NCBI GenBank assembly: GCA_045597505.1 | Contig: JAZLKE010000015.1 | Span: 1-55,074, forward strand | DNA from: Clostridia bacterium | GTDB taxonomy: Bacteria > Bacillota > Clostridia > Christensenellales > UBA1242 | DNA: 55,074 nucleotides | Reading direction: 5' to 3' | Shown: one piece after another, positions 34,118 through 54,295 of the stretch | Numbering within the stretch: the first letter of the stretch is position 1 | Layout of the letters: every line of letters begins with the position of its first letter | Program-made: the position numbers and the translations under genes | The notes under the pieces: generated by a model | What the model saw: only the letters and a program-made list of their open reading frames with translations | Told to the model about the DNA's origin: nothing | Databases searched by the model: none

Positions 34118-34141
34118 AAAAAAAGACGCCGTAGCGTCTTG
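34118..34141 (-). terminator. Intrinsic terminator following the duplicated tRNA-Ser 3' fragment
   Basis: Minus AAGACGC tacg GCGTCTTTTTTT. Confidence 0.8.
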
Positions 34142-34197
34142 TTTTGGCGGAGAGATTGTAACCTAAATCGAACACCTCGTTATTAATTTTACTACAA

Positions 34198-34784
34198 CTA
34201 TAATGTTTTTTCGTTATTCAAATTTTTATAAATACAATTTTTTCCGAGATTATCATTTATCATTGTTAGTTTTTTTACAAGATTGTCGTCATTACGAGCT
34301 CTAACTTCTTCCAAGATTAAAGATTGTTCGTTTGTTACAAAACAATGATTAACCGCACCATTTGGTGTTACAAATAAGTCCATATTCTTTGCACAAGTTT
34401 CACTAACATCATTAGAAATTTTAGCTGCTTCACAAGATGTCCTTGTTATTATAACATTATCACTCATGACTACCTTTCTGAGTTCTTGTGCGTTTTCTTT
34501 TAACCCAAGTTGTTCTAGCATGCTCTTAATTTCATGCATTGGTACAATTTTATCTTTATCATTCGCTAATTCATCAAATTGTCTATAAAGCAATGGTTCG
34601 CCACCTGTTATACTAATGCTTTTCCAATTAAAGTTATTTTTACAAACAGTAAATAGATATACATAATCATCTAATGTTAGGGTTGTCTTAATTTTATTAT
34701 TCAAACCTTCGTGATTGCAAAAACGCAATCATAATTACATGATTGCATTAAGAGAAAACGAAGTTCTTTATTTTTCATTTCCAT
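34198..34784 (-). pseudogene. Radical SAM (MoaA-like) gene, frameshifted in the CxxxCxxC motif and internally deleted
   Basis: MEMKNKELRFLLMQSCNYDCVF joins CNHEG...SITGGEPLL if one T is added to the T-run at about 34720; much of the barrel after GGEP is missing. Confidence 0.75.
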
Positions 34785-35358
34785 TTGTTATTTCCTTGCT
34801 TCTTAAATTTTCCCATTTTTTTATAAATCGTAATCGATTAGGAGTTGGTTCCAATTGCTTGAATTCTTCAAAAGTAAACCATTTTAAATCATTGCTTTCT
34901 TCTGAAATCACAAATTCTTTTTGTGGTGTTGTAAACATAAAGTAAATATCGTAGTGTTTATGTGCTGGTTCCTTTTTCTTTTCGTTGGATGGAATATCAT
35001 TAACTGCTACATCCACAATATAGGAGCCATTTACACGCAATGGTTTAAAATTCTTAATTCCACTTTCTTCAAAAGTTTCTCGCATCGCAACACGCATAGT
35101 ATTTTCATCCCCATCACTGTGCCCACCAAATTGTAACCATTTATTCAATGCTTTATGATGAGTCAATAAAATTTGAGACAAATCCTCACTCAATAGAAAG
35201 CCCGATCCATTAATATGTCCGACCAAATTCGAACGCGAAAATAAATTTTTATTTGATTTAATAAAGTCTTTAGTTAACTGTAAATTTTTTGCTTCCGTAA
35301 TATCAAAAGGTTGATAGTGATTTAATTCTTCAATCAGGTTAAACCGAAATTTTTCCAT
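34768..35358 (-). CDS. Nudix hydrolase
   Basis: GHINGS...LLTHHKALNKWLQFGGHSDGDENTMRVAMRETFEESGI, EPAHKHYD; SD AAGGAG. Confidence 0.9.
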   Translation of the reverse strand: MEKFRFNLIEELNHYQPFDITEAKNLQLTKDFIKSNKNLFSRSNLVGHINGSGFLLSEDLSQILLTHHKALNKWLQFGGHSDGDENTMRVAMRETFEESGIKNFKPLRVNGSYIVDVAVNDIPSNEKKKEPAHKHYDIYFMFTTPQKEFVISEESNDLKWFTFEEFKQLEPTPNRLRFIKKWENLRSKEITNGNEK

Positions 35359-35496
35359 AAAACAATTTACTCCTTTTGATTATTCTAAAAATCCTACCGA
35401 TAGACTATAGCATTTTTAATACAAGTCAATCAATCATACATAGTTCATATCAGACAATACTGATCAAAACATCATCATATATAGTTAGGTTCTGTT

Positions 35497-35586
35497 TGGC
35501 GGAGAGTCTGGGGTTCGAACCCAGGCCACCTGTTACAGTGCTACTCCCTTAGCAGGGGAGCCCCTTAACCACTTGGGTAACTCTCC
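35497..35586 (-). tRNA. tRNA-Ser(GCT)
   Basis: GGAGAGT...CTCCC-CTGCTAA-GGGAG, long variable arm, GGTTCGAACCC, ACTCTCCGCCA. Confidence 0.95.
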
Positions 35587-35591
35587 AAATA

Positions 35592-35628
35592 ACAAAACCA
35601 GTCTAGGTGGTAAATCTGGTTTTGTCAA
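35592..35628 (-). promoter_or_regulatory. tRNA-Ser promoter embedded in an inverted repeat (also a probable gpmI terminator)
   Basis: TTGACA-17-TAGACT within ACAAAACCAG...CTGGTTTTGT. Confidence 0.65.
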
Positions 35629-35644
35629 GTTTTGTTCGTCTAAA

Positions 35645-37180
35645 TTATTTCTGCGTAATCATGCTCGGGTTGAAATGTGGGTCAGACGGAATACCCATCA
35701 AATCGCAAATCGTGGCCGCCAAATTGGTCAAACCGTAAGTGCCAGCTTCTGTGTTCGCCATTTCAAATTCAGGCGAAGCAAACGGACAGATAGCAATCGG
35801 CACCAAGTTATTGGTATGCGAAGTTTTAACTTTGCCGTTTTCGTCGGTCATTTCTTCCGCGTTACCGTGGTCGGCAGTAATGATTAAGTTGACTTTATTT
35901 TTTTGACAAACGTTGTACAAGCGACCAACACATTCGTCCACAGTTTGGCACGCAATCACGGCGGCGTCAAATTCGCCACAATGCCCCACCATGTCGGGGT
36001 TAGGCAAATTGCATTTCAAGAAATCATAATCACCGCTTTCAATGTTTTCAATCAACTTGTCGGTAATTTCAATCGCTTTCATTTTGGGCGCTTTATTGTA
36101 AAGGTTATTCAATTTGTCACTGGGAATTTCTAACCAAGTTTCTAATTGCGGGTCGATAGGTGCGCTTTTATTACCGTTGAAGAAATAGGTCATGTGTCCG
36201 AACTTAACGGTTTCGGTCACAGTGTATTGGCGCGCGCCGTGTTCACATAACCAAGCGGTTAAAGTGTGGTTAATTACTGGTGGTTCGCAAAGGTAATTTT
36301 TTGGCAAATTCATTTCTGCGTCATATTGCAAAATACCCGCGAAGTAGCAATCTTTAATCAAGGCGCGTTGTTCGGCTGAGATAAAATCGCCATTATCAAA
36401 CATGCGCGCAGTTTCAACCGCACGGTCGCCGCGATAGTTCAACAGTAAAATTGCTTCCCCGTTTTTAATCAAATTGTCAGGGTCAATAATTGCAGGTGGT
36501 ACTTGTTCATCGGACAATGTAGGGTTGGCTTGATAAAAGTCATTTAAGTACGCGCGCCAATCGGTTACAATGGGTGCTTTACCCTGTACACAAACTTCAA
36601 ACGCTTTGGTCAACATTTCGGTTTGAGCTTGGTAACGATCCATAAAGATTTGACCACGACCACCAATCACTGTCAAGTGTGGCACTTGTGCCAAAAAATC
36701 GGCAGCCGAACGCGGGCTGACATCGCGACCATCGGTAATCGCAATCACACTGTACGGTAAGTTTTGTTGTTCGCATTGCTTGATTACTTTGAACAAATGT
36801 TCGATGTTACTATGCACGCGACCATTACTGCACAAAATGATAATGTTTAATTTAGGATATGTACTGATTTTTTGCCAAACTGCCGATTCAAAAATTTTGC
36901 CAGTTGCAAAAGCATCATTCAACAAAGACAAGCCTTGCTTAATCGTCACACCCGCACCCATTGCGTTGTGTCCGACTTCACTGTTACCCGCATCTTTCGC
37001 ACTGTCAAGCCCGACTTCGTGTCCACTGGCTTTAATTAAAGTGGTTAAGTGTTGGTTGCGGGCTTTGGTTAAATTCGGCATACCCGCCGCAACTACCGCG
37101 TTACCTTGTTCGCGTGGGCTGTAACCCAAACCGTCCATTACACATAAAACTGTACGCTTAAAATTATTTTTGTTGGTCAT
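35645..37180 (-). CDS. gpmI: 2,3-bisphosphoglycerate-independent phosphoglycerate mutase
   Basis: VMDGLG, GNSEVGH, TDGRDV, NPDMVGH, TADHGNAE, SHT. Confidence 0.95.
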   Translation of the reverse strand: MTNKNNFKRTVLCVMDGLGYSPREQGNAVVAAGMPNLTKARNQHLTTLIKASGHEVGLDSAKDAGNSEVGHNAMGAGVTIKQGLSLLNDAFATGKIFESAVWQKISTYPKLNIIILCSNGRVHSNIEHLFKVIKQCEQQNLPYSVIAITDGRDVSPRSAADFLAQVPHLTVIGGRGQIFMDRYQAQTEMLTKAFEVCVQGKAPIVTDWRAYLNDFYQANPTLSDEQVPPAIIDPDNLIKNGEAILLLNYRGDRAVETARMFDNGDFISAEQRALIKDCYFAGILQYDAEMNLPKNYLCEPPVINHTLTAWLCEHGARQYTVTETVKFGHMTYFFNGNKSAPIDPQLETWLEIPSDKLNNLYNKAPKMKAIEITDKLIENIESGDYDFLKCNLPNPDMVGHCGEFDAAVIACQTVDECVGRLYNVCQKNKVNLIITADHGNAEEMTDENGKVKTSHTNNLVPIAICPFASPEFEMANTEAGTYGLTNLAATICDLMGIPSDPHFNPSMITQK

Positions 37181-37916
37181 AATTAATCACTCCATAAAAT
37201 GAATCAATGTTTAAGGACGAACCCACAAAGAAGATACCGTCCAATTCGGGCAAAGCCATATAACTTTTAACGTTGGCTGGCGTAATTTGTCCACCGTACA
37301 AAATCGGTAAACTGGCGTCCAACGGATTATTTTTCAATTCCACCAAACATTTACGAATATGCTTAGTGACCATATCAATATAATCTGGTTTGGGTAAAAT
37401 ACCACGTTGTACCACCCAAATCGGACGATAGCAGACCACTAAACTGTCAATATTTGGTACGCCTAACAAAGCACTTTGTAATTGGCGTTTAACCACATCA
37501 AAGGTCAAATTGTTTTGGTTTTCTGACCAAGTTTCACCCACACACAAAACTGGCGTAATGCCATATTTTTGTAACAATTTAATTTTTTTATTAACGGCTT
37601 CGTCGGTTTCAAAATTTTGACGCCAAGTACCATCACCCACAATACAGTATTTTACGCCGTATTCTTTTAACAGTTGAACACTAAGTTCGCCCATACGTCC
37701 GCCGAATTCAATTTCGCTGACGTCTTGTGCGCCCAATTGTAAGGGCTTCGGCATTTTTAAGCGCGCAATTTCATAGTAGCACGCCGCTGGTGCCAAAACG
37801 ACTTCGGTCTTGTTTTTTAATTCCAAGCCACGTTTGTAAACTTCTTGGAAAAACTCCAAAACTTCTTTGGGTGTCTTGTTAGACTTCCAGCAAGCAAAAA
37901 AGATTGGTCTTCGCAT
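37164..37916 (-). CDS. tpiA: Triosephosphate-isomerase-fold protein with substituted catalytic residues
   Basis: Position pgk-tpi-gpmI; WK, LGAQD, LCVGET, ILYGG retained; GHSERR replaced by GDGTWR and YEPVWAIGTG by YRPIWVVQRG. Confidence 0.8.
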   Translation of the reverse strand: MRRPIFFACWKSNKTPKEVLEFFQEVYKRGLELKNKTEVVLAPAACYYEIARLKMPKPLQLGAQDVSEIEFGGRMGELSVQLLKEYGVKYCIVGDGTWRQNFETDEAVNKKIKLLQKYGITPVLCVGETWSENQNNLTFDVVKRQLQSALLGVPNIDSLVVCYRPIWVVQRGILPKPDYIDMVTKHIRKCLVELKNNPLDASLPILYGGQITPANVKSYMALPELDGIFFVGSSLNIDSFYGVINYDQQK

Positions 37917-37917
37917 T

Positions 37918-38970
37918 TTATTTTTCTCCTTTTTTCTTTAAGCACGCAATGCCTGGCAAAGTCGTGCCTTCGACAAATTCTAAAGCCGCACCGCCCCCAG
38001 TGGACACGTGCGTGAATTTGAAATTTTTAACTGCGGCCGCAGTATCACCACCACCAACCACACTGACCGCGCGACTGTTAGCCACTAATTCGGCAACCGC
38101 GCGAGTACCGTTACCGTTTTGCGGGTCCACATCAAATTGACCTAATGGACCATTCCAAAAAATGGTTGCACTGTTTTGAATAATCGGACGCCAAGTTTCT
38201 ACCGTCGTCATGGAAATATCCAAACCTTGGTCGGGTGCAATCAAAATTTTGGCACGACGTTTCACACCATCATCTTGCCAATCTTGCGCGATGCGACCAC
38301 CCACCAAAAGATAGTCCGCGCGTTCCGCCAACTTTCGCGCCAAAGGCAACTTGTCCGCCACTTTTTTTCCGCCAATGATGACAGTAAACGGACGTTTAGG
38401 ATTGTGAGTAATTTGACTGAGTTGTTCAATTTCGCGTGCCATTAGCAAGCCCGCATAACTGGGTAAGTAATTAGCCACCCCCACAGTGCTGGCGTGTGCG
38501 CGGTGTGCAGCACCAAAAGCATCGTTAACAAAGATTTCTCCCAAGTGTGATAACTGCTCAGCAAAGTTCGCGTCGTTTGCGGTTTCTTCGGATTGGAAGC
38601 GCGTATTTTCTAATAAGAGCACACTACCATTCGGCATATTCGCCGCTTGTTCTTCGATGGCTTGACCAACGGTCGCGGGTGCAAATTGAACGACAATCCC
38701 GGGCAGTAATGTTTGCAAATGTTCGTAAACTGGACGCAAAGAGTACTTAGCGTCGGGCTTACCTTCCGGACGACCAAAGTGACTGCATAAAACAACTTTG
38801 GCACCGCGTTCCAACAAATAGCGCACGGTTGGTAAACTGTCGACCATGCGTTTATCGTCGCTGATTTTTCCGTCCGCGGTCATCGGGACATTGTAATCAA
38901 CACGCATTAACACGCGTGTACCTGTTTTAATTGGCGCGTCCCCCACACCGGCAACCTGTATTTTCTTCAT
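37918..38970 (-). CDS. pgk: Phosphoglycerate kinase (short, 350 aa)
   Basis: RVDYNVP, SHFGRP, LLENTRF, NDAFGAAHRAHAS, WNGPLG, GGGDT, STGGGA. Confidence 0.95.
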   Translation of the reverse strand: MKKIQVAGVGDAPIKTGTRVLMRVDYNVPMTADGKISDDKRMVDSLPTVRYLLERGAKVVLCSHFGRPEGKPDAKYSLRPVYEHLQTLLPGIVVQFAPATVGQAIEEQAANMPNGSVLLLENTRFQSEETANDANFAEQLSHLGEIFVNDAFGAAHRAHASTVGVANYLPSYAGLLMAREIEQLSQITHNPKRPFTVIIGGKKVADKLPLARKLAERADYLLVGGRIAQDWQDDGVKRRAKILIAPDQGLDISMTTVETWRPIIQNSATIFWNGPLGQFDVDPQNGNGTRAVAELVANSRAVSVVGGGDTAAAVKNFKFTHVSTGGGAALEFVEGTTLPGIACLKKKGEK

Positions 38971-39016
38971 CGTTATTTATTATATACGCAAACCTCCAAC
39001 TTGCCAAATAAATTGG

Positions 39017-39775
39017 TTAGGACTTTCGGCGGTTGGCTTGCAATTTATAAACAATCCGTGCTACCCAAGAGCTGGGTAATAGCGCCATAGCAAAACGCGC
39101 CAACCGGACACCCAAGGTTGGCACAATGTAAAAGCGGTTCAAATGTTCAATCGTATAGCGCGCAACTTTGGCACTGTCTACGCCGTTAAAATTAAACTTC
39201 ACATTGGCGGTCTTGGCAAAGTTGGTATCCACCGGTCCCGGGCAAAGTACACTGATTTTGACTTTGGATTTTTCACGACGCAATTCTTCACGGATTGCTT
39301 CGCTTAAACGTACAACATAATTTTTAGTGGCATAGTAAGTCGCCATCAAAGGTCCTGGCATAAAACCTGCAATCGAACCCACGTTCAAGATGTGACCACT
39401 GTTACGAGCTTTCATATTCACTAAATATAACTTGGTTAAAATGTGCAACGCAGTCACGTTGGTATTAATCATGGCTAAGTCTTTTTCCAACGAAGTTTGG
39501 GTAAACACCCCACTATCGCCGAAGCCCGCATTGTTAATCAATAAGTCCACATCAGGGTGCATGGCGTGCAATTGCTGACAATGTTCTGCCACGCTTAAAT
39601 CAAGACTGACCGTAGTCACATTGTGATTAGGATATGCGGTCATAATCATTTGTTGCAATTCCAACAACCGTCCTTGGTCACGCGCCACCAAAACCATTTG
39701 GTCGTATTTTTCTGCCAACAATTTTGCCATTTCGCGTCCCATACCAGACGAAGCACCAGTAATTAAAACTTTCAT
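39017..39775 (-). CDS. Short-chain dehydrogenase/reductase
   Basis: TGASSGMG, NNAG, YYATK, LCPGPV. Confidence 0.93.
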   Translation of the reverse strand: MKVLITGASSGMGREMAKLLAEKYDQMVLVARDQGRLLELQQMIMTAYPNHNVTTVSLDLSVAEHCQQLHAMHPDVDLLINNAGFGDSGVFTQTSLEKDLAMINTNVTALHILTKLYLVNMKARNSGHILNVGSIAGFMPGPLMATYYATKNYVVRLSEAIREELRREKSKVKISVLCPGPVDTNFAKTANVKFNFNGVDSAKVARYTIEHLNRFYIVPTLGVRLARFAMALLPSSWVARIVYKLQANRRKS

Positions 39776-39819
39776 GTTTTTATATTGCCACAACTGCGCA
39801 TTCTTGTCGATAAAAAAAT

Positions 39820-39885
39820 ATGTAAATAACACTTGACATAGTGTTTAACTATACATATAATTACGATGTAAAGTTTACTTTACAT
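39820..39885 (+). promoter_or_regulatory. Consensus sigma-A promoter flanked by two operator palindromes
   Basis: TTGACA(39833)-17-TATAAT(39856); ATGTAAAGtttaCTTTACAT (39866-39885) and ATGTAAATaacaCTTGACAT (39820-39839). Confidence 0.8.
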
Positions 39886-39897
39886 AAAGGAGGAAAA

Positions 39898-40233
39898 ATG
39901 AATAAAGCAGAAATTTTGCAAAAAGCACAAAACCAAAAAGCCGTTGTTGGCGAAATGGAAAAAGAAAAGTTGGGCAAAGGCGCCATCATTTCTTTGGTCG
40001 TAGCAGCAGTTGTCGCGATTGCATTTACCATTGTGGAAGGTGTCTTCGGACATTTCACCGCAATTTATGCCATTGCTACAATCTGTTTTGTATGGGCGGG
40101 TACCTTTTATATCTTGCAATACTTTTACGCAAAACGTCCATGGCAAGTTTTGATTGGTTCAGTTTTGGAATATTTGGCAGCCATTTTCTTCATTGTGCGT
40201 TACATTCTTGCTTTGACTGGCATCTGGTGGTAA
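39898..40233 (+). CDS. Small three-TM membrane protein (DUF6442-like)
   Basis: MNKAEILQKAQ...EME start, TM helices, SD AAGGAGG; paired with an XRE regulator. Confidence 0.7.
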   Translation: MNKAEILQKAQNQKAVVGEMEKEKLGKGAIISLVVAAVVAIAFTIVEGVFGHFTAIYAIATICFVWAGTFYILQYFYAKRPWQVLIGSVLEYLAAIFFIVRYILALTGIWW

Positions 40234-40236
40234 CAC

Positions 40237-40443
40237 ATGAAGTCCTTGGAACTGAATAACCGTTTGAAAGAACGGCGCACAGAAAAAGGTCTATCACAAG
40301 AGGAATTGGCTAAACTAATTGGCACTACACGCCAAACCATTATATCCATTGAAAAGAAACAGTTTAACCCGACCACCAAATTAGCGATTTTACTCAGCGT
40401 CGCGTTAGATTGTAAAGTTGAAGACCTATTTTATTTGGAGTAA
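40237..40443 (+). CDS. XRE-family HTH regulator
   Basis: NRLKERR...LSQEELAKLIGTTRQTIISIEKKQFNP. Confidence 0.93.
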   Translation: MKSLELNNRLKERRTEKGLSQEELAKLIGTTRQTIISIEKKQFNPTTKLAILLSVALDCKVEDLFYLE

Positions 40444-40444
40444 T

Positions 40445-40475
40445 AAAAAAACACGGGATTTCGCCCGTGTTTTTT
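40445..40475. terminator. Bidirectional intrinsic terminator
   Basis: AAAAAAACACGGG atttcg CCCGTGTTTTTT. Confidence 0.88.
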
Positions 40476-40498
40476 GATTAATACTGATTAACTCGAAA

Positions 40499-41182
40499 TT
40501 ACATTTGAGTAGCAACTTGAACACCAACACCCATTGAAGAGCATACAGTGATGCGTTTCAAATAAATACCTTTCGCAGCAGCAGGTTTAGCTTTAACAAT
40601 TGCGTCCAACAAGACAGCATAGTTTTCCGCCAATTTTTTAGTGCCGAAAGACATTTTACCCAAAATACAGTGAACGATGTTAGCTTTATCCAAACGGTAT
40701 TCAACTTTACCGCCCTTGGCATCAGCAACAGCTTTTTTTACGTCCATGGTAACGGTACCACTCTTCGGGTTTGGCATTAAGCCTTTTGGACCCAAAATTT
40801 TTGCGATACGACCAACCATACCCATCATATCTGGGGTGGTAATACAGACGTCAAAGCCTAACCAACCGCCGTTAATTTTGGCAATCATATCTTCGGCGCC
40901 AACGAAATCAGCACCAGCTTTTTCAGCTTCAACCGCTTTATCACCTTTGGCTAAAACCAAGATTTTTTGGCTGCGACCTGTACCATGTGGCAAAACCACG
41001 GTACCACGGACTTGTTGGTCCGCTTGTTTACCATCAACGCCCAAGTTAATGTGAACTTCGATGGTTTCGTCAAATTTGACACGTTTGGTTTTAGCAACCA
41101 AGTCCAACGCTTCGTTAATTGGCAAAGCGTGTACGTCTTTGATTTCTTCCAAAACTTTGTTGTAACTCTTACTGTGTTTCAT
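40499..41182 (-). CDS. rplA: 50S ribosomal protein L1
   Basis: [34 protein letters not shown]. Confidence 0.98.
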
Positions 41183-41185
41183 CGA

Positions 41186-41614
41186 TTATTCCTCCACGGT
41201 CACGCCCATGCTGCGTGCGCTACCTTTAACCAAGCGTTCTGCCGCTTCCATTGAAGCAACATTCAAATCAGGCATTTTTTGTTCTGCGATTTTACGAACT
41301 TGTTCTTTGGTTAATTTGCCGACTTTTTCAGTGTTTGGACGTTTGCTGCCGCTTTGTAAGCCCAATGCTTGTTTAATCAAGACTGCGGCCGGCGGAGTTT
41401 TCAAGACAAAGTCAAACGAACGGTCGCCATAAATTGTAACGACAACTGGAATGACCAAGCCTTTGTCCTTAGCTGTGGCATCGTTAAATTGTTTAACGAA
41501 GCCTGGTAAGTTAATACCGTGTGGACCCAAAATGGTACCCACGGGTGGAGCCGGAGTTGCAGCACCGGCTTGCAATTGTAACTTGACAACTGCCTTAATT
41601 GGTTTGTCTGCCAT
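41186..41614 (-). CDS. rplK: 50S ribosomal protein L11
   Basis: [29 protein letters not shown]. Confidence 0.98.
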
Positions 41615-41633
41615 TTTTTAATTTTCCTTTTAA

Positions 41634-41674
41634 GCGGTACCAACGACTGCGTAACTTTGTTACACATCTCCCGC
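41634..41674 (-). promoter_or_regulatory. Putative L1-binding autoregulatory leader of rplK-rplA
   Basis: GCGGGAG-[TGTGTAAC aaa GTTACGCA]-...ACCGC structure just upstream of the SD. Confidence 0.6.
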
Positions 41675-41738
41675 GTTAATGAAGATAATATACCGCAACT
41701 GTTAATATTTGTAAAGGGCTTTACACAAAATAAAAACA

Positions 41739-43859: not shown

Positions 43860-45204
43860 GATAAGATACCACACTTGCCGCCGCTTTGTCTTGATATTTC
43901 CCAAACAGTAACCACGCGCCTAAACCAGCAACAGTCACGCCGCCAACCAACACCCAACCCAGCGCCGTGCTGACTTGCCATGTTTGGGTCGCAACACCAC
44001 TTTGAAAGCCAATCAAATCTAACAACAGTCCAACAATGAAAGTCACCAATGCATTAGTACATTTCGTGCAAAAAGTTAAAAAGCCTGTCGCCATGGCAGT
44101 ATTTTCTAACGCGATGTTATCCGCAAACATGCTAATCGGTAATGAATAAATACACCCCACACCCACCGCAATCAGATAGACCACTGTGGCAACTGAGATA
44201 AGCAATACGCCAGTCGGTAAAAATATGCGTGCAGTCAACAAACCCGCAAAAACCACTACGCCCCCCAGCACTACCCATAACGCAGTTTGAACGGTACGCT
44301 TTTTCCCACAGTGCGCACTTACACGACACCATAACGGTTGCCCACTAATCACCCCCGCGACCAAACAACCTAACACCAAAGAAATTTGCCACGAAGTAAA
44401 ATGAAAAGTATAGGTAAATACATGCATGCCCAAGGTGGTCAAAAATGCACTGCATGACAGCGCGACCGCATAAGCCAGAATCAAATACACACGGTTACGT
44501 TCGTCCAAAATCGCAAAGAATTCTTTTAAGAATGAAACTTTATGTGCGGGTTTGGGCGTATTTACAACACCACTGTGGCGGTAACGAAAAGTACCAAAAA
44601 TGGTAATCATCGCGGTTAAGATACACAGCGTACTGGTTATCGCAGCAATAACATGGTAGCCACCTGTTGCTGTATGCATAGTGGCGACGGCTTTGGGTTG
44701 CAAGACCAGACCCATTAAAATTGATGGCACCAACAAAGCGGCGGATTGGAATACGGTTTTATAACTTTGGATACTGGTGCGTTCGTGGTAAGTTTGGCAC
44801 ATATCAAAACCCAGCGCACTGTACGGTGTTGAGTACACAGTGTTGAAAGTTTCAATTAACAACAGCCCTACCAACAGAACAAAAAATTTGCGTGTTTCAC
44901 CCCATGCGGGATTGATGTGCCAAATGATTAAATTGATGATTGCTACCATTAAACAACCTACCAACATAAAGGAGTGACGCTTGCCCAGTCGACCGCGGAA
45001 GTTGTCCGACATTGCACCAACCAAAGGATCGGTTACCGCGTCCCAAACGGTAGATATGGCAATTGCTAATCCCATTAAAGTGCCTGACAGCCCAAGCACA
45101 CCAGTGCCAAAAAACATCAAAAAATTATTTAGCGTTTGGTTTACGCTGCCATACCCAAACGCTCCCACGCCATAAAGTAACTTGTCCGTACGGGAAACTT
45201 TCAT
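43831..45204 (-). CDS. MFS glycoside-pentoside-hexuronide (GPH) type symporter
   Basis: WDAVTDPLVGAMSD...GKRH, TPYSALG...ERT; about 12 TM segments. Confidence 0.88.
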   Translation of the reverse strand: MKVSRTDKLLYGVGAFGYGSVNQTLNNFLMFFGTGVLGLSGTLMGLAIAISTVWDAVTDPLVGAMSDNFRGRLGKRHSFMLVGCLMVAIINLIIWHINPAWGETRKFFVLLVGLLLIETFNTVYSTPYSALGFDMCQTYHERTSIQSYKTVFQSAALLVPSILMGLVLQPKAVATMHTATGGYHVIAAITSTLCILTAMITIFGTFRYRHSGVVNTPKPAHKVSFLKEFFAILDERNRVYLILAYAVALSCSAFLTTLGMHVFTYTFHFTSWQISLVLGCLVAGVISGQPLWCRVSAHCGKKRTVQTALWVVLGGVVVFAGLLTARIFLPTGVLLISVATVVYLIAVGVGCIYSLPISMFADNIALENTAMATGFLTFCTKCTNALVTFIVGLLLDLIGFQSGVATQTWQVSTALGWVLVGGVTVAGLGAWLLFGKYQDKAAASVVSYHDEQIQSAH

Positions 45205-45259
45205 CTTTATTATTTGTATTTGCTAAAATTTGAATTTAGCAGCATACTATCTATGAAAC

Positions 45260-45787
45260 ATGGGGAAAAATGTAACGGGTGACAAACCCAAGTTTGATTT
45301 GATTACGGCTTCCAAAACCAAAAAGTACAAAATCATTTTTGGGATTATTTTGGGGCTGGGTATTTTATTGCTGATTGGCGGTTTTGTTTTGCGCGGAACC
45401 TTGACTTCGGCGGTAACCCCGAACTCACTCACAATTGAACATTTATCAAATTTGGACGGCGCCGCGCCAACCAATTATAAATGTATCATTTCGCAAGATG
45501 AATCTTTCGTACTTTCTACCAGTACCCCGCCAGACCGTGCTTTGGTTAACCCGATTACTTTTGACTTAGATAACGATGCCAAAATGTTTGCGGAAATTCG
45601 CGAAAAGACCAACACGACTACGATTACCCAAAACCGCTACCAAGGTATGTTTTGGATTCACATTCGCGATGATGCGCCACAATTTATTGGTGCAGATCAA
45701 ACGGACACTAACCGTCCCAAAGGCTATTTAACCATTCGTTGCGGTTCACGTGTTTTGCGCATTGAATTAACTTACTACGCCAAATAA
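45260..45787 (+). CDS. Hypothetical membrane-anchored protein
   Basis: Single N-terminal TM; fills the gap. Confidence 0.7.
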   Translation: MGKNVTGDKPKFDLITASKTKKYKIIFGIILGLGILLLIGGFVLRGTLTSAVTPNSLTIEHLSNLDGAAPTNYKCIISQDESFVLSTSTPPDRALVNPITFDLDNDAKMFAEIREKTNTTTITQNRYQGMFWIHIRDDAPQFIGADQTDTNRPKGYLTIRCGSRVLRIELTYYAK

Positions 45788-45833
45788 TTGACATTTTTTG
45801 CATATTTAATTTTTTGGTTCATACATATGGGCT

Positions 45834-46550
45834 ATGAAAATCAAAAAAATTTTTAACAAGAAATTTTGGATTGCCGCCAGCATTATTGTCGTGTCTTTGG
45901 TCGTAACAATCATTGGCGTTTGCAATTTCAAACGCAGTGACACTTACCAAATGGCGCTGGAAAACATTGCCGAAGCACGCTTTTATTTGAAAACCGCAGG
46001 TACGGACAACGCAATTGGCAACGTACAATTGTACAGCGGAATTCGTGAAACAGAATTTAACGCGGACGGTATCGCGACCGCAACAGTGCCTTTTACCATT
46101 TTATCCGTAGAACCTGCCAACGACAAAATAGTTTACAACGGTTGCGTAACAACCTTAGTTAAAATCGACGACCAAAAACCAATTACTTTGGTTTTGGAAA
46201 AAAACCCTTACGGCAATAACTACGCCGCCGACTTAGAAAACACCGTCGACGCGAACGCCAACGTGTCAATTACTTTTCAAGCTAACGGCGAAACCATTGG
46301 CACAGTTAGTTTGGAAAATGTCATGCCCGCGGAAGCCATTACTTGGGAAGCGGCTTTGGAAATTGCATGCCAAGCTTTGGACGGCGTGATTGGTACAGAT
46401 ACACGCATGGAAAGTTCAACCAAAATTTTGTGCGACAGCACAACGGTTAATACTCCATATTGGTTCGTATCCTTTGTAACCGAAACTGGCAATCGTTATT
46501 TTGTGGTGGTCAGTCACGACGGCAAAGTCATCGGCACCAGCGAAAAATAA
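45834..46550 (+). CDS. Hypothetical membrane-anchored/secreted protein
   Basis: N-terminal basic stretch plus TM; followed by terminator AAGCCCA...TGGGCTTTTT. Confidence 0.75.
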   Translation: MKIKKIFNKKFWIAASIIVVSLVVTIIGVCNFKRSDTYQMALENIAEARFYLKTAGTDNAIGNVQLYSGIRETEFNADGIATATVPFTILSVEPANDKIVYNGCVTTLVKIDDQKPITLVLEKNPYGNNYAADLENTVDANANVSITFQANGETIGTVSLENVMPAEAITWEAALEIACQALDGVIGTDTRMESSTKILCDSTTVNTPYWFVSFVTETGNRYFVVVSHDGKVIGTSEK

Positions 46551-46657
46551 ACCGCATTCAAGTATAAAGAAGCCCACACATGTTGGGCTTTTTTAATCAA
46601 TTGCGTTTGCAAACTTGCTAAAAACACGCGAGTTTGCTATACTACATATGTAGAAAT

Positions 46658-47410
46658 ATGGGGTACACCAAAGCAGTCTTTATTAACATGTTTTCCGCGC
46701 TGGCCGTGGTTATTTTGTTGGGTGTTGTTTTGAAATTGACTTTGGGTAAAAAGTCTTTGGCGGTACGCCAAATTCCTCTACATATCATTGGCTTTTCTTT
46801 GGTGGTCTTTGAAATCGTGAAGCAGGCCGTCTACATTTGTAAGGGGACATGGAACACTTGGTGTTTACCATTACACTTTTGCAGTTTCTTTTTAATTTGG
46901 TTTGCGGTAGCTTTGGTTACGCGCGGTCGTTTACGTCAGTTAATGTATTTTTGCAGTTTAACGGGTGGTGTCATTATGACCATTGTTTTGTACTTCTACC
47001 CGACTGCTGTTTTACCAGAAGCCTCGAAAAATTTTTGGGACACGTTTGAACACGGTCATTCTTACTTTTTCCACATCAGTGTCGTTGCCTATTGGGTTTG
47101 GATGTTAATGTTAAACATTTATCAACCAGAACGCCGACACGTTGTCATGGCGACAGTTTTATACACGGCCTTTTATTTCATTGTCATGGCGGGAGCTTTT
47201 ATTTTCCAACAAAACTACACCAATGTTTTACGTTCTGACTTGCCGTCCTTTGAACGTTTCCGTTTATATGCGGGACAATTTTTTTATGATGCTGTATTGC
47301 TTAGTATTGGCATTGGCGTAGTCGCAGGTATCGGCAGTTTAATGTACTTTGTAACAAACAAACTTAACCAACATTACTATCGACGAAATACTAACACAAA
47401 GCAAAAGTAA
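46658..47410 (+). CDS. YwaF/TMEM164-like integral membrane protein
   Basis: LPLHFCS motif, HSYFFH, NY; multiple TM. Confidence 0.75.
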   Translation: MGYTKAVFINMFSALAVVILLGVVLKLTLGKKSLAVRQIPLHIIGFSLVVFEIVKQAVYICKGTWNTWCLPLHFCSFFLIWFAVALVTRGRLRQLMYFCSLTGGVIMTIVLYFYPTAVLPEASKNFWDTFEHGHSYFFHISVVAYWVWMLMLNIYQPERRHVVMATVLYTAFYFIVMAGAFIFQQNYTNVLRSDLPSFERFRLYAGQFFYDAVLLSIGIGVVAGIGSLMYFVTNKLNQHYYRRNTNTKQK

Positions 47411-48331
47411 TTATAGTGGTAACCACAAACCGACATAACCAACTAAAATACTAAAAGCAATTAACCAAGTAACCACAAAAATTTTTTCACGCCATAAACC
47501 TTTTTGTTTAAATAAAAAGATTAAACCTAAGCCCGCGTTCACACACAAACCACCCAACAATGCACCAAAGCGTAAACCGCCAACCAAATAAAATTCGGTT
47601 AAAACCACACTGGCGGCACAATTGGGAATTAAACCCACAATCACAGCTAACAATGGTTGCAACCACAAACTGCCCGATAAAAATTCGGTCATACGGTCTT
47701 CGCCAATCCATAAATCAACTAAACAACCAAACAACAAACTAATCACAACAATAAATGCCCAAATTTTCAAACTGTGTAACAATGGGTGTTTCCAATCGAA
47801 ATGTTTGGTTTCGACATGGTGGTGACAACAACCGTCGTGAATGTTGACAGTTTTAATTACATGGTCGTGTTCGTCTGCGTGTTCGTCATGTTGTTTTTCC
47901 GCGGTTGCAGCAACAGTTTTACGACGGAAAATCAAACGATACGTTGCGTTGGCTAAATAGCCGACCACCACCGCAATCACAATCTTGGCAACAATTAACA
48001 CTAAAATTGACAACCATTTTTGGGGGTGACTGAGTAACAAAGGCAAGGCTTCATCACTGGTCGCAATAAAGACCGACAACAATGCGCCAATCGGAATAAT
48101 ACCTTGCGCAAACAAATCGGCAGCCACAACGGAAAAACCACATTGCGGTACCGAACCAACCAAAGCCGCCAAAGCTGGACTGGCCTTACCGCGAAGTAAG
48201 TGGTTATTTTGCAATTTGTGTGCCCACTTAAATTCAATCAATTCAATCAAGAAATATACAGCCAACAAAATTGGCAAAACTTTCAAACTGTCCAGCATAG
48301 CTTCTTGAAAAACTTCCCAAAATTCTTCCAT
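47411..48331 (-). CDS. Putative metal (Mn/As) permease with His-rich loop
   Basis: GSVPQCGFS, ATSDEALP, GLIPNCAAS, HDEHADEHDH...GCCHHH. Confidence 0.78.
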   Translation of the reverse strand: MEEFWEVFQEAMLDSLKVLPILLAVYFLIELIEFKWAHKLQNNHLLRGKASPALAALVGSVPQCGFSVVAADLFAQGIIPIGALLSVFIATSDEALPLLLSHPQKWLSILVLIVAKIVIAVVVGYLANATYRLIFRRKTVAATAEKQHDEHADEHDHVIKTVNIHDGCCHHHVETKHFDWKHPLLHSLKIWAFIVVISLLFGCLVDLWIGEDRMTEFLSGSLWLQPLLAVIVGLIPNCAASVVLTEFYLVGGLRFGALLGGLCVNAGLGLIFLFKQKGLWREKIFVVTWLIAFSILVGYVGLWLPL

Positions 48332-48488
48332 AAGTGCCTTATTATAAAATCAAACGCTAAAATGCGCAAGAATTAAAATAACTTTTGTAAACGACAAAAT
48401 TTGTCAAATAAATTTTGCACAAGTAGTTGTATTGCTGTCATACCTATGATATTATGGGTTTTTATTTGGGAAAAGGAAGGTAAAGGTT

Positions 48489-48758
48489 ATGGCCGAAACT
48501 GAAAAGTTTACAAGCATCAGACCAGAATGCAACTTTGACGTTGTCGCATTAAAAGCCGACAAACAGAAACGACGCATCTTGGCCATTGCCAATGGCGAAA
48601 TTGTTTGCTCGTATCACGATGCGATGCAAGAAGTTAGCAAGTACGAAAATCTGTTACCACAAATGCAAGATGGCTATTTATTTTTAGCCGCAGCAAAGTG
48701 TTTAATTATTGATCACTTCCGCAACTGCAACAAAGACGACGCTGGAACAAGTTTATAA
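48489..48758 (+). CDS. Hypothetical protein (89 aa)
   Basis: Purine-rich SD AAGGAAGG/AAAGG; terminator GACCG...CGGTC after the stop. Confidence 0.65.
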   Translation: MAETEKFTSIRPECNFDVVALKADKQKRRILAIANGEIVCSYHDAMQEVSKYENLLPQMQDGYLFLAAAKCLIIDHFRNCNKDDAGTSL

Positions 48759-48777
48759 AAGATGACCGCTTTGTCGG

Positions 48778-49644
48778 TCATTTTTTATGTGTAATTTTTG
48801 CAAACCAACTTTCAAGCGCAGTTTGATACTTACAGAACAAAGCAAAGCCACCGCCCAATAAAACACAGATTACAATCCATATTGGAATCCCCCACCCACT
48901 GAACGGAATCATACCAAAGAAACAAATGGTGCCGAAATACAACGGTTTGGCAATCAACATTGTCAGTAAAAAGAACGAAAACTTCATACGGGTTAAACCC
49001 GCAATCATACATAACATATCATCAGGAAAGAATGGTAAAACCTGCATAATTAAAAACAGCAGATTTCCCCGCGTACCCAACAACTTTTGATAATGGTCGG
49101 CAGTTGTTTCCCCGACACACCAAATCACCGCTTTACTTCCGCAAGTACGACCAAACCAAAAGCACACAATCGAACCCGCCCAAGTTACCACTAAGGTAAT
49201 CCAAAAGGTCGGCCAAATACCAAAAATACTAATCGCAGCCAACATAAATAAAAAGCCTGGCAACGGCAATAATACAACATTCAAAAATTGTAAAATCATG
49301 TAAACCAAGTACGCCCAAGACCCACTGTCGCGAATTAGGTTTTTTAGCTGTTCCAAACTTTGAAAATCGTCCAATAAACCGCACCAATGTAACACACACA
49401 ACCCACCAATCATCACAAAGACCAAAATGTGCAATATAAACAAACTGCGCCCCAGCGCCTGTTTACCGACCATTAAACACACAATCGAACCAAAACCAAA
49501 CCCCAAAACGCAAACGTAACCTGTAATTTGTAAAGCTAAATCGGTTTGCCGAAAATAACAAATTAAAGCCGTCAAAGATAACGCAATTAACACAAATTCA
49601 ATTGCGATTAAAAAAATGTTTTGAAATTTTGTGCGCACTGCCAC
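48778..49644 (-). CDS. TVP38/VTT (DedA superfamily) membrane protein
   Basis: LLPLPG, GSIVCFWFGR, LPFFPDDMLCMIAGLTRM. Confidence 0.88.
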   Translation of the reverse strand: MAVRTKFQNIFLIAIEFVLIALSLTALICYFRQTDLALQITGYVCVLGFGFGSIVCLMVGKQALGRSLFILHILVFVMIGGLCVLHWCGLLDDFQSLEQLKNLIRDSGSWAYLVYMILQFLNVVLLPLPGFLFMLAAISIFGIWPTFWITLVVTWAGSIVCFWFGRTCGSKAVIWCVGETTADHYQKLLGTRGNLLFLIMQVLPFFPDDMLCMIAGLTRMKFSFFLLTMLIAKPLYFGTICFFGMIPFSGWGIPIWIVICVLLGGGFALFCKYQTALESWFAKITHKK

Positions 49645-49681
49645 TTCTATTATTATGCGCGAATGGTGTGCGATTTTTCCA

Positions 49682-49756
49682 TGGTCGGAGCGGCGGGAAT
49701 TGAACCCACGACCTCAAGTCCCCCAGACTTGCGCGATACCACTACGCTACGCCCCG
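49682..49756 (-). tRNA. tRNA-Pro(GGG)
   Basis: CGGGGCG...CAAGT-CTGGGGG-ACTTG...GGTTCAATTCC...CGCTCCGACCA. Confidence 0.93.
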
Positions 49757-49804
49757 TTAAGCCAGTACGGATTGTCACAGGGTATCTGACAACACTGTTG
49801 GCAA

Positions 49805-49826
49805 GATACCACTACGCTACGCCCCG
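49805..49826 (-). repeat. Exact 22-nt copy of the tRNA-Pro 5' end, 70 nt upstream
   Basis: CGGGGCGTAGCGTAGTGGTATC occurs at 49826-49805 and 49756-49735. Confidence 0.95.
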
Positions 49827-49866
49827 AATGCCTCAATATAACACGCACGCACAAAAACTTCAACCG

Positions 49867-50577
49867 TTAATATTCGACATTGTACAACGTTAAACCTTTG
49901 GCGGGTGCGGTCTTGCCCGCTTTGCGACGGTCGCGTGATTCTAACACTGGTGCAACCTCCCGACCGTCAACCAAAGTCCCCACAATGATGCGAACCATAT
50001 TATGTAAAAAACCGTTACCACGTACCACGAACCACACTTCGTCGGGACGTGGCGTTTGAATGTCTAAACTGTAAATTGTGCGAATTGGACTTTTGTCACC
50101 AATCTCGGCACAAAACGCCGTAAAATCATGCGTACCCACCAAAGCCGCGGCTTGCGTACGCAAATGCGCAATGTCCAACGGTTTGTATAGTTGCCAATAA
50201 TCAATGTCGCGTGCAGGGTGTCGAGTGGGAGAAATATAACATTTATAAATGTAGGTCTTGGCTTTGGCGTCACTGCGCGCGTTGAACTTGGGCAAAATTT
50301 CAGCAGCGGTTACCGCTAAATCGGACGGTAAGTAACTGTTGACGCCCAATAAAAATTGATAGATTTTTACATCTTCACGCGGACACAAACAGGATACGAC
50401 TTGCCCGACGGCATGCACACCCGCGTCGGTGCGCCCACTGCCCACCACTTTTACTGGCGTAGCAAAATAGCGTGAAATAGCTTTTTCCAATTCGGCTTGC
50501 ACGGTGCGTTGCCCCTTTTGGGTTTGAAACCCCGCAAATTTCGTTCCCACATACTCACATTGAATTTTCAAATGCAC
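49867..50577 (-). CDS. truA: tRNA pseudouridine(38-40) synthase
   Basis: GSGRTDAGVHA, GTHDFTAF, GNGFLHNMVRIIVG, TAPAKGL. Confidence 0.95.
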   Translation of the reverse strand: MHLKIQCEYVGTKFAGFQTQKGQRTVQAELEKAISRYFATPVKVVGSGRTDAGVHAVGQVVSCLCPREDVKIYQFLLGVNSYLPSDLAVTAAEILPKFNARSDAKAKTYIYKCYISPTRHPARDIDYWQLYKPLDIAHLRTQAAALVGTHDFTAFCAEIGDKSPIRTIYSLDIQTPRPDEVWFVVRGNGFLHNMVRIIVGTLVDGREVAPVLESRDRRKAGKTAPAKGLTLYNVEY

Positions 50578-50683
50578 GAACACAGTGTAACACACAAAGT
50601 ATCAATTTGGTAATTTGTTTCAAGTCGACGTCGATTACTTAATTTCACTTGACAATCATATATGAAAACTTTATATGGTTCTT

Positions 50684-51541
50684 ATGAAAAGAATTTTGTC
50701 CAATTTGTTTGCGGAACAGGTAAATAGATTGAACAATTGTTTTACTGAATTAAACAGTTCCGCCAAAAGCGAACCTGTGTTCGGTTATATCCACTTATTA
50801 GACCGAGGTAACGCAATTTTTATTACCGATGAACGTAAACCGTATTTAGTTTCAATTGAATTTACTGTGTTTTATAAATTGAAGACGGGCGACCGCGTAC
50901 AAGCCTGCACCAGTTTCAGTCCAGCTTGCAATAATTATGTCGTCGAACAAATTGTCGAAGTTAATCACGTAGCATACGACGAAGCCCCTGTGGTTAAAGC
51001 GGACACAAGTTTTAATCTCGACGGACGCAAAGTCGATTTAGGCACTTCGGTTTTAATACCAGTGGAAGATAATTTGGACATTGCCAACAAAGTTGCCACA
51101 ATCCAACAAGCTTTACCCGAAAATACTGTACCCGTTTTCTTGTCTTTTGACGGCAGAAAAACCAACTTTAATTTTGAACATAGTTGTTTTACTAAGCCAG
51201 ATTATACTACGCGTGAAAAGTTAATGGCGTGCTTGCTGACATTCTTTGAATGTAAACAACAAGCCGACATTGGCAAAGATGTTGTGTTAATTATCGACAG
51301 TCTGGATAAAATGTTTAACGTGTTTAATGGTTGCATGCAAGCCGCAGGTACCATTGACCCGAACTTGTTTTCGGCAGCGGCAGTCATGGATTTTGAAAAC
51401 ATTGTATGCACCAGTGGCAACTTAAAAGCGGGCGGTTCGTTGACGATAATCGGCTTACACCGCGCTGGCACTACCCCGCAACAACTCCAAATCACCGACC
51501 GCCTGCACCAAATTCTCGACCAAGTCATCACGCTGAAATAA
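50684..51541 (+). CDS. Degenerate Rho-like protein (OB-type RNA-binding domain + truncated RecA-type domain, no Walker A)
   Basis: LKTGDRV (Rho LRTGD), GKDVVLIIDSL (Rho KDVIILLDSI), GNLKAGGSLTIIG (Rho NVEEGGSLTIIA); promoter TTGACA-17-TATATG-6-ATG. Confidence 0.7.
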   Translation: MKRILSNLFAEQVNRLNNCFTELNSSAKSEPVFGYIHLLDRGNAIFITDERKPYLVSIEFTVFYKLKTGDRVQACTSFSPACNNYVVEQIVEVNHVAYDEAPVVKADTSFNLDGRKVDLGTSVLIPVEDNLDIANKVATIQQALPENTVPVFLSFDGRKTNFNFEHSCFTKPDYTTREKLMACLLTFFECKQQADIGKDVVLIIDSLDKMFNVFNGCMQAAGTIDPNLFSAAAVMDFENIVCTSGNLKAGGSLTIIGLHRAGTTPQQLQITDRLHQILDQVITLK

Positions 51542-51566
51542 AAAAGACGCCCGCAAGCGCCTTTTT
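51540..51566. terminator. Bidirectional intrinsic terminator abutting a tRNA 3'-end fragment
   Basis: AAAAAAGACGC ccgcaa GCGCCTTTTT. Confidence 0.75.
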
Positions 51567-51694
51567 ATTTTGGCAGGGGTCAAGCAACGTAAAACGAACC
51601 TTTAAAAATTTAAATTAATAACAAAGTAAATTACTTTGTTGACTTTTTATTAAACTTAATAGTTTCAAAATAAATTCTATGTTATTCTATTCTA

Positions 51695-54157: not shown

Positions 54158-54295
54158 TCTTTTGTGTGTTTGGGATTCTAGCGTGCCTTTATAATATAAC
54201 AAGACCACCTTTTTTTGAAAAACAGCAAAGATATAACTTTCTTTTGCTAGAATACGAGTATATATTTATATTTAAGAAATAACAAAGGAGGTTTG

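Follow-up and report, generated by a model that had tools for sequence, protein, structure and literature searches.

The 55,074-nucleotide stretch of Clostridia DNA described here (the window) is the whole of contig C15 of a 91%-complete, 0.84-Mb (835-kb) assembly, and it contains two islands, each bordered by a displaced copy of a tRNA 3' end and by a shared motif of 14 nt (the 14-mer). At site 1, a hairpin (34123-34140) is followed by the 10-mer TGGCGGAGAG (34145-34154), by ATTGT and by the 14-mer AACCTAAATCGAAC (34160-34173), and at site 2, a hairpin (approximately 51541-51570) is followed by TGGCAGGGGT (51571-51580), CAAGC and AACGTAAAACGAAC (51586-51599). The two 14-mers are identical at 12 of 14 positions and are equally spaced, five nucleotides (N5) after the 10-nt tRNA-end copy, so that the common architecture reported in a first-pass annotation of this DNA is confirmed by the sequence. 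As this annotation had also stated, AT-rich DNA follows both sites, with a GC content of 0.29-0.32 after site 1 and 0.24-0.34 after site 2, compared with approximately 0.41 in the surroundings. In what follows, G000 to G018 are the 19 genomes of the genus that were compared (G000 being the assembly of the window), L numbers denote loci of large serine recombinases (LSRs) and X numbers denote public runs.

At site 1, all features are read on the minus strand. The hairpin at 34123-34140 is a strong intrinsic terminator that was detected by the terminator scan (fold -11.7 kcal/mol, z -5.6), and it is interpreted as the original terminator of tRNA-Ser(GCU), displaced by 1.35 kb, which would form the host-side B' flank of an attR junction. 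The 10-mer at 34145-34154, which reads CTCTCCGCCA on the minus strand, repeats the final 10 nt of tRNA-Ser(GCU) (35497-35506) without a difference and would be the attR core. The adjoining N5 and 14-mer (34155-34173), at positions 6-24 from the presumed centre of the site, would be the element-side P arm of attR, and the displaced Ser ends at L189 and L194 carry the same arm.

At site 2, the 10-mer at 51571-51580 reads ACCCCTGCCA on the minus strand and in this orientation agrees at every position with the 3' end of tRNA-Gln(CUG), located at G000:C18 c17345-17418; it would be the attR core of island 2 and has one mismatch to tRNA-Gln(UUG). The earlier suggestion that this fragment comes from a tRNA-Trp does not hold, as the 10-mer has no matches besides the tRNA-Gln(CUG) end and two sites in coding sequence. 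The N5 and 14-mer at 51581-51599 (minus strand) would form the P arm of island 2, and near-identical arms lie beside Gln fragments in G005, G010, G008, G011, G017 and G018. The hairpin at 51541-51570, which lies between A- and T-runs after a plus-strand gene (50675-51541), is presumed to be an old two-way terminator of the former tRNA-Gln. It contains a mismatch, has a weak fold (z -2.5 on the plus strand, -1.2 on the minus strand) and was missed by the terminator scan. A further reading, in which the arms are the orphan coding tail of a split integrase gene, was not adopted for this clade, as the minus-strand reading frames that cross the two arms stay open for no more than approximately 23-28 codons; it is also disfavoured by an LSR gene of G010 that ends 52 nt short of its tRNA, outside the arm.

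The joint pattern TGGC-N11-AACNTAAANCGAAC, with at most one mismatch, has two matches in the window, where 100 shuffles give an expectation of 0.00, and the pattern of the 14-mer occurs twice in the entire 835-kb assembly, both times at the window sites. Since both patterns were derived from these two sites, the counts are circular, and the independent test of the signature is its recurrence in other genomes.

Site 1 closes a complete cassette. At its other end lies an intact tRNA-Ser(GCU) gene (35497-35586, minus strand; ARAGORN), whose last 10 nt would serve as the attL core and whose T-loop GTTCGAA, 13-19 from the presumed centre, would be the host-side B arm, as the shift test described below suggests. 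Next to it, at 35478-35496 on the same strand, the sequence AACAG AACCTAA (tRNA strand) would form the element-side P' arm of attL. Its inner 7-mer (TTAGGTT, 35485-35491) is an inverted copy of AACCTAA at 34160-34166, each lying 5 nt inside its own 10-mer repeat, and the two 10-bp direct repeats (34145-34154 and 35497-35506) are separated by 1,342 bp. The two copies are identical, that is, the tRNA has been regenerated and its displaced 3' fragment remains as a direct repeat. The form predicted for a far end (reverse-complement arm, N5, tRNA end) is thus found at site 1 (35485-35506), as well as in G005, G012, L189 and L194; what failed in this prediction was the identity of the second tRNA, which is Gln and not Trp.

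Two cargo genes and no integrase of its own are found between attL and attR of this cassette, which is the arrangement of a cis-mobilisable element (CIME). The first is a NUDIX hydrolase gene of 196 amino acids (34768-35358, minus strand; Pfam NUDIX, 1.1e-9), and the second is a MoaA-like radical-SAM gene (34198-34778, minus strand), in which a 1-nt frameshift, located in the A-run 34719-34723, interrupts the CxxxCxxC motif (CNYDCVFC). The radical-SAM gene overlaps the NUDIX stop codon, and the two therefore form an operon on the minus strand; PADLOC returned nothing for either protein. Four animal-gut runs, each from a different study, likewise have contigs that hold the cassette. In contigs of X1 and X3 the radical-SAM frame is restored by one extra A at 34718, and in X2 the cassette has another, third kind of left flank. 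Internal deletions of 530, 353 and 355 nt and a 28-nt indel affect the radical-SAM region in other runs and in G010 (where the deletion is of 530 nt). Together with the frameshift, these changes indicate that the cargo of the cassette is eroding while its ends persist. A candidate third internal site (approximately 34676-34696) was discarded, being radical-SAM coding sequence; the shorter G010 cassette reflects a 530-bp deletion of this gene.

The comparison with G010, another species of the same genus, is informative about mobility. The NUDIX cassettes of G000 and G010:C41 are 98% identical, apart from the 530 bp of the radical-SAM gene by which the G010 copy is shorter, whereas the neighbouring tRNA-Ser/iPGM DNA is 84% identical, and the identity stops at the copies of the att core. 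In G003, a terminator resembling 34123-34140 stands directly 3' of the same tRNA-Ser and the motif is absent, which identifies G003 as an empty site. From these alignments, the NUDIX cassette is to be regarded as mobile DNA. These findings, together with the fact that island 2 is without homologues in the genus (see below), support the earlier view that the regions are variable and not fixed core DNA.

Recurrence of the arm was assessed across the 19 genus genomes with patterns anchored in tRNA sequence. The pattern T-loop, N15, CCA, N5, motif has 24 matches in 13 of these genomes and none in the reversed control, and the tRNAs concerned are those for Gln, Ser(GCU), Ser(UGA), Ala and Val. For the reverse-complement arm with N12 and CCA after it, there are 25 matches compared with 11 in the control, and 16 of the 25 lie at tRNA-like 3' ends, including both window sites. 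Relaxed family-wide patterns without the tRNA part were not enriched (8 matches versus 12 in the reversed control), and counts were therefore limited to tRNA-anchored patterns. After tRNA-Ser(GCU), CCA-N5-motif is present in 6 of the 11 genomes compared; G000 has the inner 7-mer only, and G003, G001, G005 and G008 have none. A Gln version of the complete arrangement is found in G005, where tRNA-Gln(CUG) is followed by a small open reading frame (ORF), a degenerate core, N5 and AAACTAAAATGAAC, a sigma-like gene, GTTCATTTTACGTT-N5-ACCCCTGCCA and a terminator; the two 14-mers of this pair are alike at 12 of 14 positions and in inverted order. A separate observation comes from G016:C5 (approximately 68050-68300), where tRNA-Val(UAC) and tRNA-Ala(CGC), approximately 200 bp apart, have identical N5, 14-mer and hairpin trailers, and the stretch between them is N-masked.

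One explanation for this recurrence is that N5 plus the 14-mer belongs to the tRNA genes themselves, as a trailer and terminator module passed on vertically in this lineage and kept for transcription termination or for 3' processing, with islands nearby being incidental. In G002, G017, G005, G009, G012, G016 and many loci of LSR homologues, the 14-mer pairs with a downstream complement that is followed by a T-run, and variants preserve the pairing, as in AGTCTAAA with TTTAGGCT. However, a trailer leaves unexplained the reverse-complement copies that stand 5 nt before displaced tRNA ends at 16 sites, the cargo found between inverted copies and the motif-free empty site in G003, and G010, G013, G014 and G015 keep the motif while another hairpin terminates. 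Nor does it account for the 5-bp offset match to the T-loop that is described below. While part of the junctions taken by themselves would suit it, as discussed further on, this explanation is considered unlikely.

The first-pass annotation had advised a search for serine or tyrosine recombinase genes. LSR homologues are present in 15 of the 19 genus genomes, and intact elements carry an LSR that converges on the tRNA. In G010, a 496-residue LSR gene converges on tRNA-Ser(GCU), with its stop codon 52 nt from the tRNA and the motif in between. A complete element of 5.9 kb is present in G012, extending from attL at tRNA-Ala (CCA, ATCCA, AACCTAAAACGAAC) to attR ATTCGTTTTAGGTT-ACTAC-CGCTCCACCA; it encodes an LSR, whose domains are Resolvase, Recombinase and Zn_ribbon_recom, together with a methyltransferase, an XRE regulator and a rolling-circle Rep, and its two 14-mers match at 13 of 14 positions. 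Two elements are in tandem in G012, and LSRs 99% identical to the G012 enzyme are located by tRNA-Ala and tRNA-Val in G016. Among loci of G010-LSR homologues in other species, 26 of 42 have a convergent tRNA within 3 kb downstream, representing eight amino-acid classes, and in 13 of these 26 the motif (at most one mismatch) is found at the N5 spacing, most of the others having near variants. At L189 and L194, the P arm and a second copy of the core lie 3.85 and 2.28 kb away, respectively. In a tree of 24 LSRs the target amino acid is clustered (seven changes for eight classes), and near-identical LSRs are found at tRNAs that have a common acceptor 3' end, namely Ala-CGC and Val-UAC, Ser-GCU and Ser-CGA, and Leu-AAG and Leu-CAA. 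The proposal that the motif is a recombination-site arm common to elements at different tRNAs and served by one recombinase family is thereby upheld, the family being that of the LSRs, which the annotation had not named.

Indications of accretion come from the NUDIX cassette of G010, whose tRNA-side flank resembles another P arm (N5 ACACT, as in L189 and L194, with core TGTTCCGCCA). The tRNA-Ser of this genome lies near a contig end with an LSR element attached, and the sequences suggest a tandem array of tRNA-Ser, LSR element and NUDIX cassette split over two contig ends. With this arrangement, the initial impression of a G010 cassette copy without a tRNA is resolved.

Two groups of LSR loci call for separate remarks. 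At L054-L061, L070 and L078, a conserved 5' leader forms an open frame with in-frame TAA codons before the start MKTAVVYARYS; recoding of these genes was considered and ruled out, as the TAA codons sit in the leader, upstream of the real start. A distant group comprising L064 (G013) and L075 (G011), whose LSRs are 31-33% identical to that of G010, points convergently at tRNA-Arg(CCU) and tRNA-Glu(UUC). The arm common to these loci is a different one, which ends in TCGGAA and keeps the spacing, so that the plan of the site seems to be the same and the motif another.

Displaced tRNA 3' fragments are the classic mark of tyrosine-integrase islands, at least in the parts of the Islander description available (PMC4383910), and the arms could accordingly be the core-type sites of a tyrosine recombinase, either a tRNA-island integrase or an Xer-like enzyme acting in trans, with the direct repeat as the overlap. 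Tyrosine recombinase (PF00589) matches are found in the assembly on contigs C6 and C36 only, one gene on each, and a tyrosine-recombinase-like ORF lies 0.6 kb beyond the G010 LSR. Cores of tyrosine recombinases have overlaps of 6-8 bp, and the inverted 7-mers and 14-mers are 20 bp apart, which is far wider. No tyrosine integrase was found at the tRNA-proximal end, where intact relatives have an LSR instead; the seven ORFs scanned in the complete G012 element include no recombinase besides the LSR, and it is LSR genes that converge on the tRNA in 26 of 42 loci. A tyrosine recombinase is thus held to be quite improbable as the source of these sites. Readings as integron attC or as Xer/dif-like sites were likewise dropped, on the 20-bp spacing of the inverted repeats and the link to LSRs and not on a dedicated test. 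As for contig C36 itself (G000:C36 1-1667), this AT-rich 4.6-kb contig (GC 0.355) opens within the gene of a phage-type tyrosine integrase, and an XRE-like repressor and unknown genes come next. It is a separate integrative element with its attachment site off the contig.

The geometry of the sites also fits that of LSR substrates. Integration by LSRs is characterised by strand exchange at a 2-bp central dinucleotide and by excision that depends on a directionality factor. When the ends of the site-1 cassette are joined, a dyad of the form 14-mer (reverse complement)-N5-CTCTCCGCCA-N5-14-mer is obtained, with its centre between core positions 5 and 6 and half-sites of 24 bp. Imperfect dyads of approximately 50 bp with two 24-bp half-sites (5+5+14) are found at site 1, G005, G012, L189 and L194. 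Where the core copies differ (G012, L189, L194 and G010-C41), they differ at positions 1-3 only, so that the exchange would take place further to the right, in agreement with a centre at 5-6. The same differences bear on the idea that the islands are transposons of one family, which would have terminal inverted repeats, prefer tRNA ends and duplicate 10 bp of the target. While inverted ends with a flanking direct repeat do resemble such repeats and a target-site duplication, the supposed duplication is constant for each tRNA and its copies can differ at positions 1-3, unlike a true target duplication, and no transposase was seen in the elements examined; among the explanations considered, this one is given the least credence.

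Counted outward from the centre, TCGAAC occupies positions 19-24 in the arm and 14-19 in the tRNA, where it is part of the T-loop. In a shift test of 41 distinct tRNA-plus-arm sites, identity between arm positions 16-24 and tRNA positions 11-19 was 0.69 at shift 5 and at most 0.36 at all other shifts from 0 to 11, a result that amounts to one consensus comparison and not 41, since T-loops are universal and the motif itself served to select the sites. In the sections available of the study of the Listeria A118/LI integrase (Rutherford et al. 2013, PMC3783163), the zinc-ribbon domain (ZD) motif is at 16-24 in attP and at 11-19 in attB, and attB is approximately 10 bp shorter. The outer motif thus lies 5 bp nearer the centre in the host site than in the element site here, as it does in attB and attP of LSRs.

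Taken together, these observations make it probable that the signature is the element-side P-arm half-site of an LSR clade that inserts small mobile elements at the acceptor/CCA ends of tRNA genes, and that both window sites are attR junctions. The two window copies are most likely leftover far-end junctions of islands that are now without an integrase. In this scheme, the attP of the free element would be an imperfect dyad (14-mer in reverse complement, N5, 10-bp tRNA-end copy, N5, 14-mer) and the host attB would be the tRNA 3' end, whose left arm would present TCGAAC of the T-loop 5 bp nearer the centre, and the zinc-ribbon domains of the LSR would tell attB from attP by this 5-bp placement of the outer motif. 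Integration would restore the tRNA from the copy carried by the element, and the old 10-nt end with its terminator would be displaced to the far side, beside the P arm, to form attR. Site 1 would then close a complete integrase-less cassette, and site 2 would mark the far side of a composite island, inserted at what was once a tRNA-Gln locus. Integrase-less cassettes may leave once another element of the clade, with an LSR of its own, has integrated at their tRNA, with the array being excised between the new attL and the old attR. Such excision needs only an intact far P arm, and the P arm is the part that has been kept at both sites. What the sequences show is the anatomy of the sites, its recurrence, the link to LSR genes and the 5-bp offset, whereas the exact crossover, any present activity and mobilisation in cis are inferences. 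The data agree with hitch-hiking in cis, through accretion, no less than with service in trans.

Several observations weigh against this interpretation. As had been noted at the outset, neither a serine nor a tyrosine recombinase is encoded on the contig of the window, and there is no demonstrated tie between the arms of the window and the LSR genes on C26 and C31, the two that this assembly contains. Among the 24 tRNA-plus-motif junctions of the genus, 18 have no LSR within 1.5 kb, and this is true of all of the approximately 11 Gln junctions; the sole trace of an LSR by a tRNA-Gln is a 37-residue remnant. There is no intact LSR by any Gln-type site, so the link of site 2 to LSRs rests on the similarity of its arm. 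The Gln-type trailer is confined to the genus, being found in 6 of 13 sampled genus genomes and in none of 288 from other genera. This confinement and the 18 junctions without a nearby LSR are what a native tRNA trailer would lead one to expect, and as the 14-mer is the 5' half of a terminator hairpin in many loci, with compensatory changes, structure may account for part of its conservation. At site 1, the P' arm is without the outer TCGAAC part. Furthermore, the identity of 8-12 bp between junctions exceeds what an LSR needs, and tandem arrays imply the use of hybrid sites, which canonical LSRs avoid. Finally, neither excision nor a circle junction was seen; in the four public runs that cover the cassette no contig spans the whole island or a circle junction, and these contigs are uninformative on excision. 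Decay after integration combined with hitch-hiking would fit the lack of a recombinase in the window, the junctions that have no LSR, the confinement of the Gln-type trailer, the double role of the 14-mer and the lost outer motif of the P' arm.

Island 2 lies beyond the genes tRNA-Pro, truA and a 288-residue gene, which precede site 2 in this order. In G005, G011 and G017, truA lies approximately 1.3-5 kb from Gln-type att sites, which identifies site 2 as an old tRNA-Gln neighbourhood. The 288-residue gene (50675-51541) has a weak Rho-like C-terminal match (1.7e-7) that is far under the cut-off, and it may itself be accessory, given that it is on other contigs in relatives, sometimes in two copies. 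After the arm, island 2 begins with a plus-strand gene (51695-54157) for a GajB-like UvrD-family helicase of 820 amino acids (Pfam; PADLOC GajB, 8.2e-47). A Gabija pair is not present: there is no GajA, no gene lies between the arm (51599) and the start of the helicase (51695), and the next genes are Kiwa-like. These are a plus-strand gene for a KwaA-like membrane protein of the Kiwa defence system (54293-54817; PADLOC KwaA, 2.3e-13) and, at the place expected for kwaB, the start of a further plus-strand gene (54814-55074), which has no PADLOC match and is cut by the contig end after 87 codons. The description of the cargo as defence-like is therefore apt for KwaA and the GajB-like helicase and fits the cargo only in part. 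Short repeats excepted, no DNA homologues of island 2 were found in the 18 other genus genomes, and the same is true of the helicase.

The near end of island 2 is off the contig, which stops at 55074, and the end of the window has no overlap with other contigs of the assembly. In the region G000:C18 54590-58421, a tRNA-Gln(UUG) ends in ACCCCTTCCA, with one mismatch (at the discriminator position) to the fragment of the window, and an AT-rich island (GC 0.22-0.34) follows this tRNA and reaches the end of contig C18. As a guess, this could be the near end of island 2; the geometry allows it, and nothing joins the two contigs.

Upstream of kwaA, a conserved promoter-like module of approximately 35 nt (54166-54203, plus strand) is present that elsewhere also precedes LSR genes. 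It consists of sigma-70-like elements (TTGAGA or TTGGGA, 17 nt, ATATAA), and in several species it lies approximately 0.5 kb upstream of LSR genes. Besides the window, copies are found at G000:C26 7720-7760, at L018 (9222-9243) and at L039, L040, L042 and L067. The copies diverge immediately after AACAAG, and some then form a 12-bp inverted repeat with the body of the promoter.

A wider and more tentative proposal, which we regard as possible and would not call probable, is that this LSR clade uses the invariant tRNA T-loop as its outer host contact and an attP with a 10-nt copy of its target, so that a new tRNA would be reached with little beyond a new 10-bp core, and that integrase-less defence and metabolic cassettes, since an old insert would need no more than its far P arm to leave with the next incoming element, pile up and travel as integron-like, serine-recombinase-driven cargo in 0.8-Mb genomes. 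A true integron-like system would differ from this in that integrase-less cassettes with hairpin sites would be captured singly at a tRNA-linked platform by a chromosomal recombinase encoded elsewhere. Small one- or two-gene cassettes without a recombinase (site 1 and the G005 array), arms that can form hairpins and a conserved, portable promoter-like module are all in keeping with such capture. However, no integron-type integrase is found beside any array, the only candidates being tyrosine recombinases on other contigs; the cassette boundaries are tRNA-end copies and not one folded site per cassette, and intact elements have an LSR of their own. Capture of this kind is judged very improbable.

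If the LSR interpretation is correct, it would provide an account of how very small genomes of gut Clostridia gain and swap accessory genes, here Kiwa, a GajB-like helicase and a NUDIX/radical-SAM pair, at several tRNA loci. It would also give a sequence rule by which the edges of islands can be recognised even after loss of the integrase (tRNA end, N5 and 14-mer, with the far end showing the reverse complement). Should the T-loop reading be true, these enzymes would form a naturally occurring series of serine integrases, related to one another, in which a short and readable core decides the target, and this would be of interest to those who study or use them.

Some features of these islands recall integrase-less systems described in other bacteria. 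The CIMEs of streptococci are integrase-less DNA bounded by att sites that is joined in tandem to an element with an integrase and can leave together with this partner, the enzymes in these systems being the tyrosine integrases of conjugative elements. The islands described here are likewise integrase-less and bounded by att sites, and mobilisation is suggested by the G010 array and the 98% identical cassette only. Integron cassettes and integrase-less attC clusters are small, promoter-poor cargo units that have no recombinase of their own and occur in arrays. Unlike integrons, the present islands have neither an integron integrase nor a single folded site per cassette, and their boundaries are tRNA-end copies with dyad arms.

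At the level of the whole system, the islands also resemble the tycheposons of Prochlorococcus (Hackl et al., bioRxiv 10.1101/2020.12.28.424599), which, according to the portions of the preprint available, are also found in streamlined genomes, where tRNA islands grow by successive integrations that leave partial tRNAs and degenerate remnants, with cargo that includes defence and niche genes. Of 937 tycheposons, 910 have a tyrosine recombinase and 27 an LSR, and in the literature examined on LSRs at tRNA genes, supplements aside, this preprint is the sole described case that was found, which is not proof of absence. The arm motif and the T-loop offset were not found in the same portions of the preprint, nor was a description of this arm or offset at tRNA targets found elsewhere in this literature, again with supplements aside. 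Unlike tycheposons, the islands here belong to a lineage of gut Clostridia with genomes of approximately 0.8-1 Mb. The tyrosine-integrase tRNA islands of the Islander database (PMC4383910, as far as the excerpts of it go) are similar in that the tRNA 3' end is split and restored by the island and a displaced fragment lies at the far end. They are different in that the recombinase here is a serine recombinase, with 24-bp half-sites instead of a short overlap and arm-type sites and with an identity block of approximately 10 bp.

The mechanism proposed here agrees with recognition of attP and attB by LSRs. These sites, as described for Listeria A118/LI in the accessible sections of that work (PMC3783163), share with the present sites a dyad of approximately 48 bp with 24-bp half-sites, an LSR gene beside the junction and an outer 9-bp motif placed at 16-24 in the element and at 11-19 in a host site that is approximately 10 bp shorter. 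As opposed to the Listeria sites, the host site here is a tRNA 3' end with the universal T-loop as its outer motif, the element copies 8-12 bp of the tRNA end and rebuilds the gene, elements stack in tandem, and many junctions are without an LSR. What seems particular to the islands described here is that the host site has the T-loop for its outer motif, that a 10-bp core tracks the target tRNA and can be read off, and that integrase-less cassettes persist behind a conserved far arm in very small genomes.

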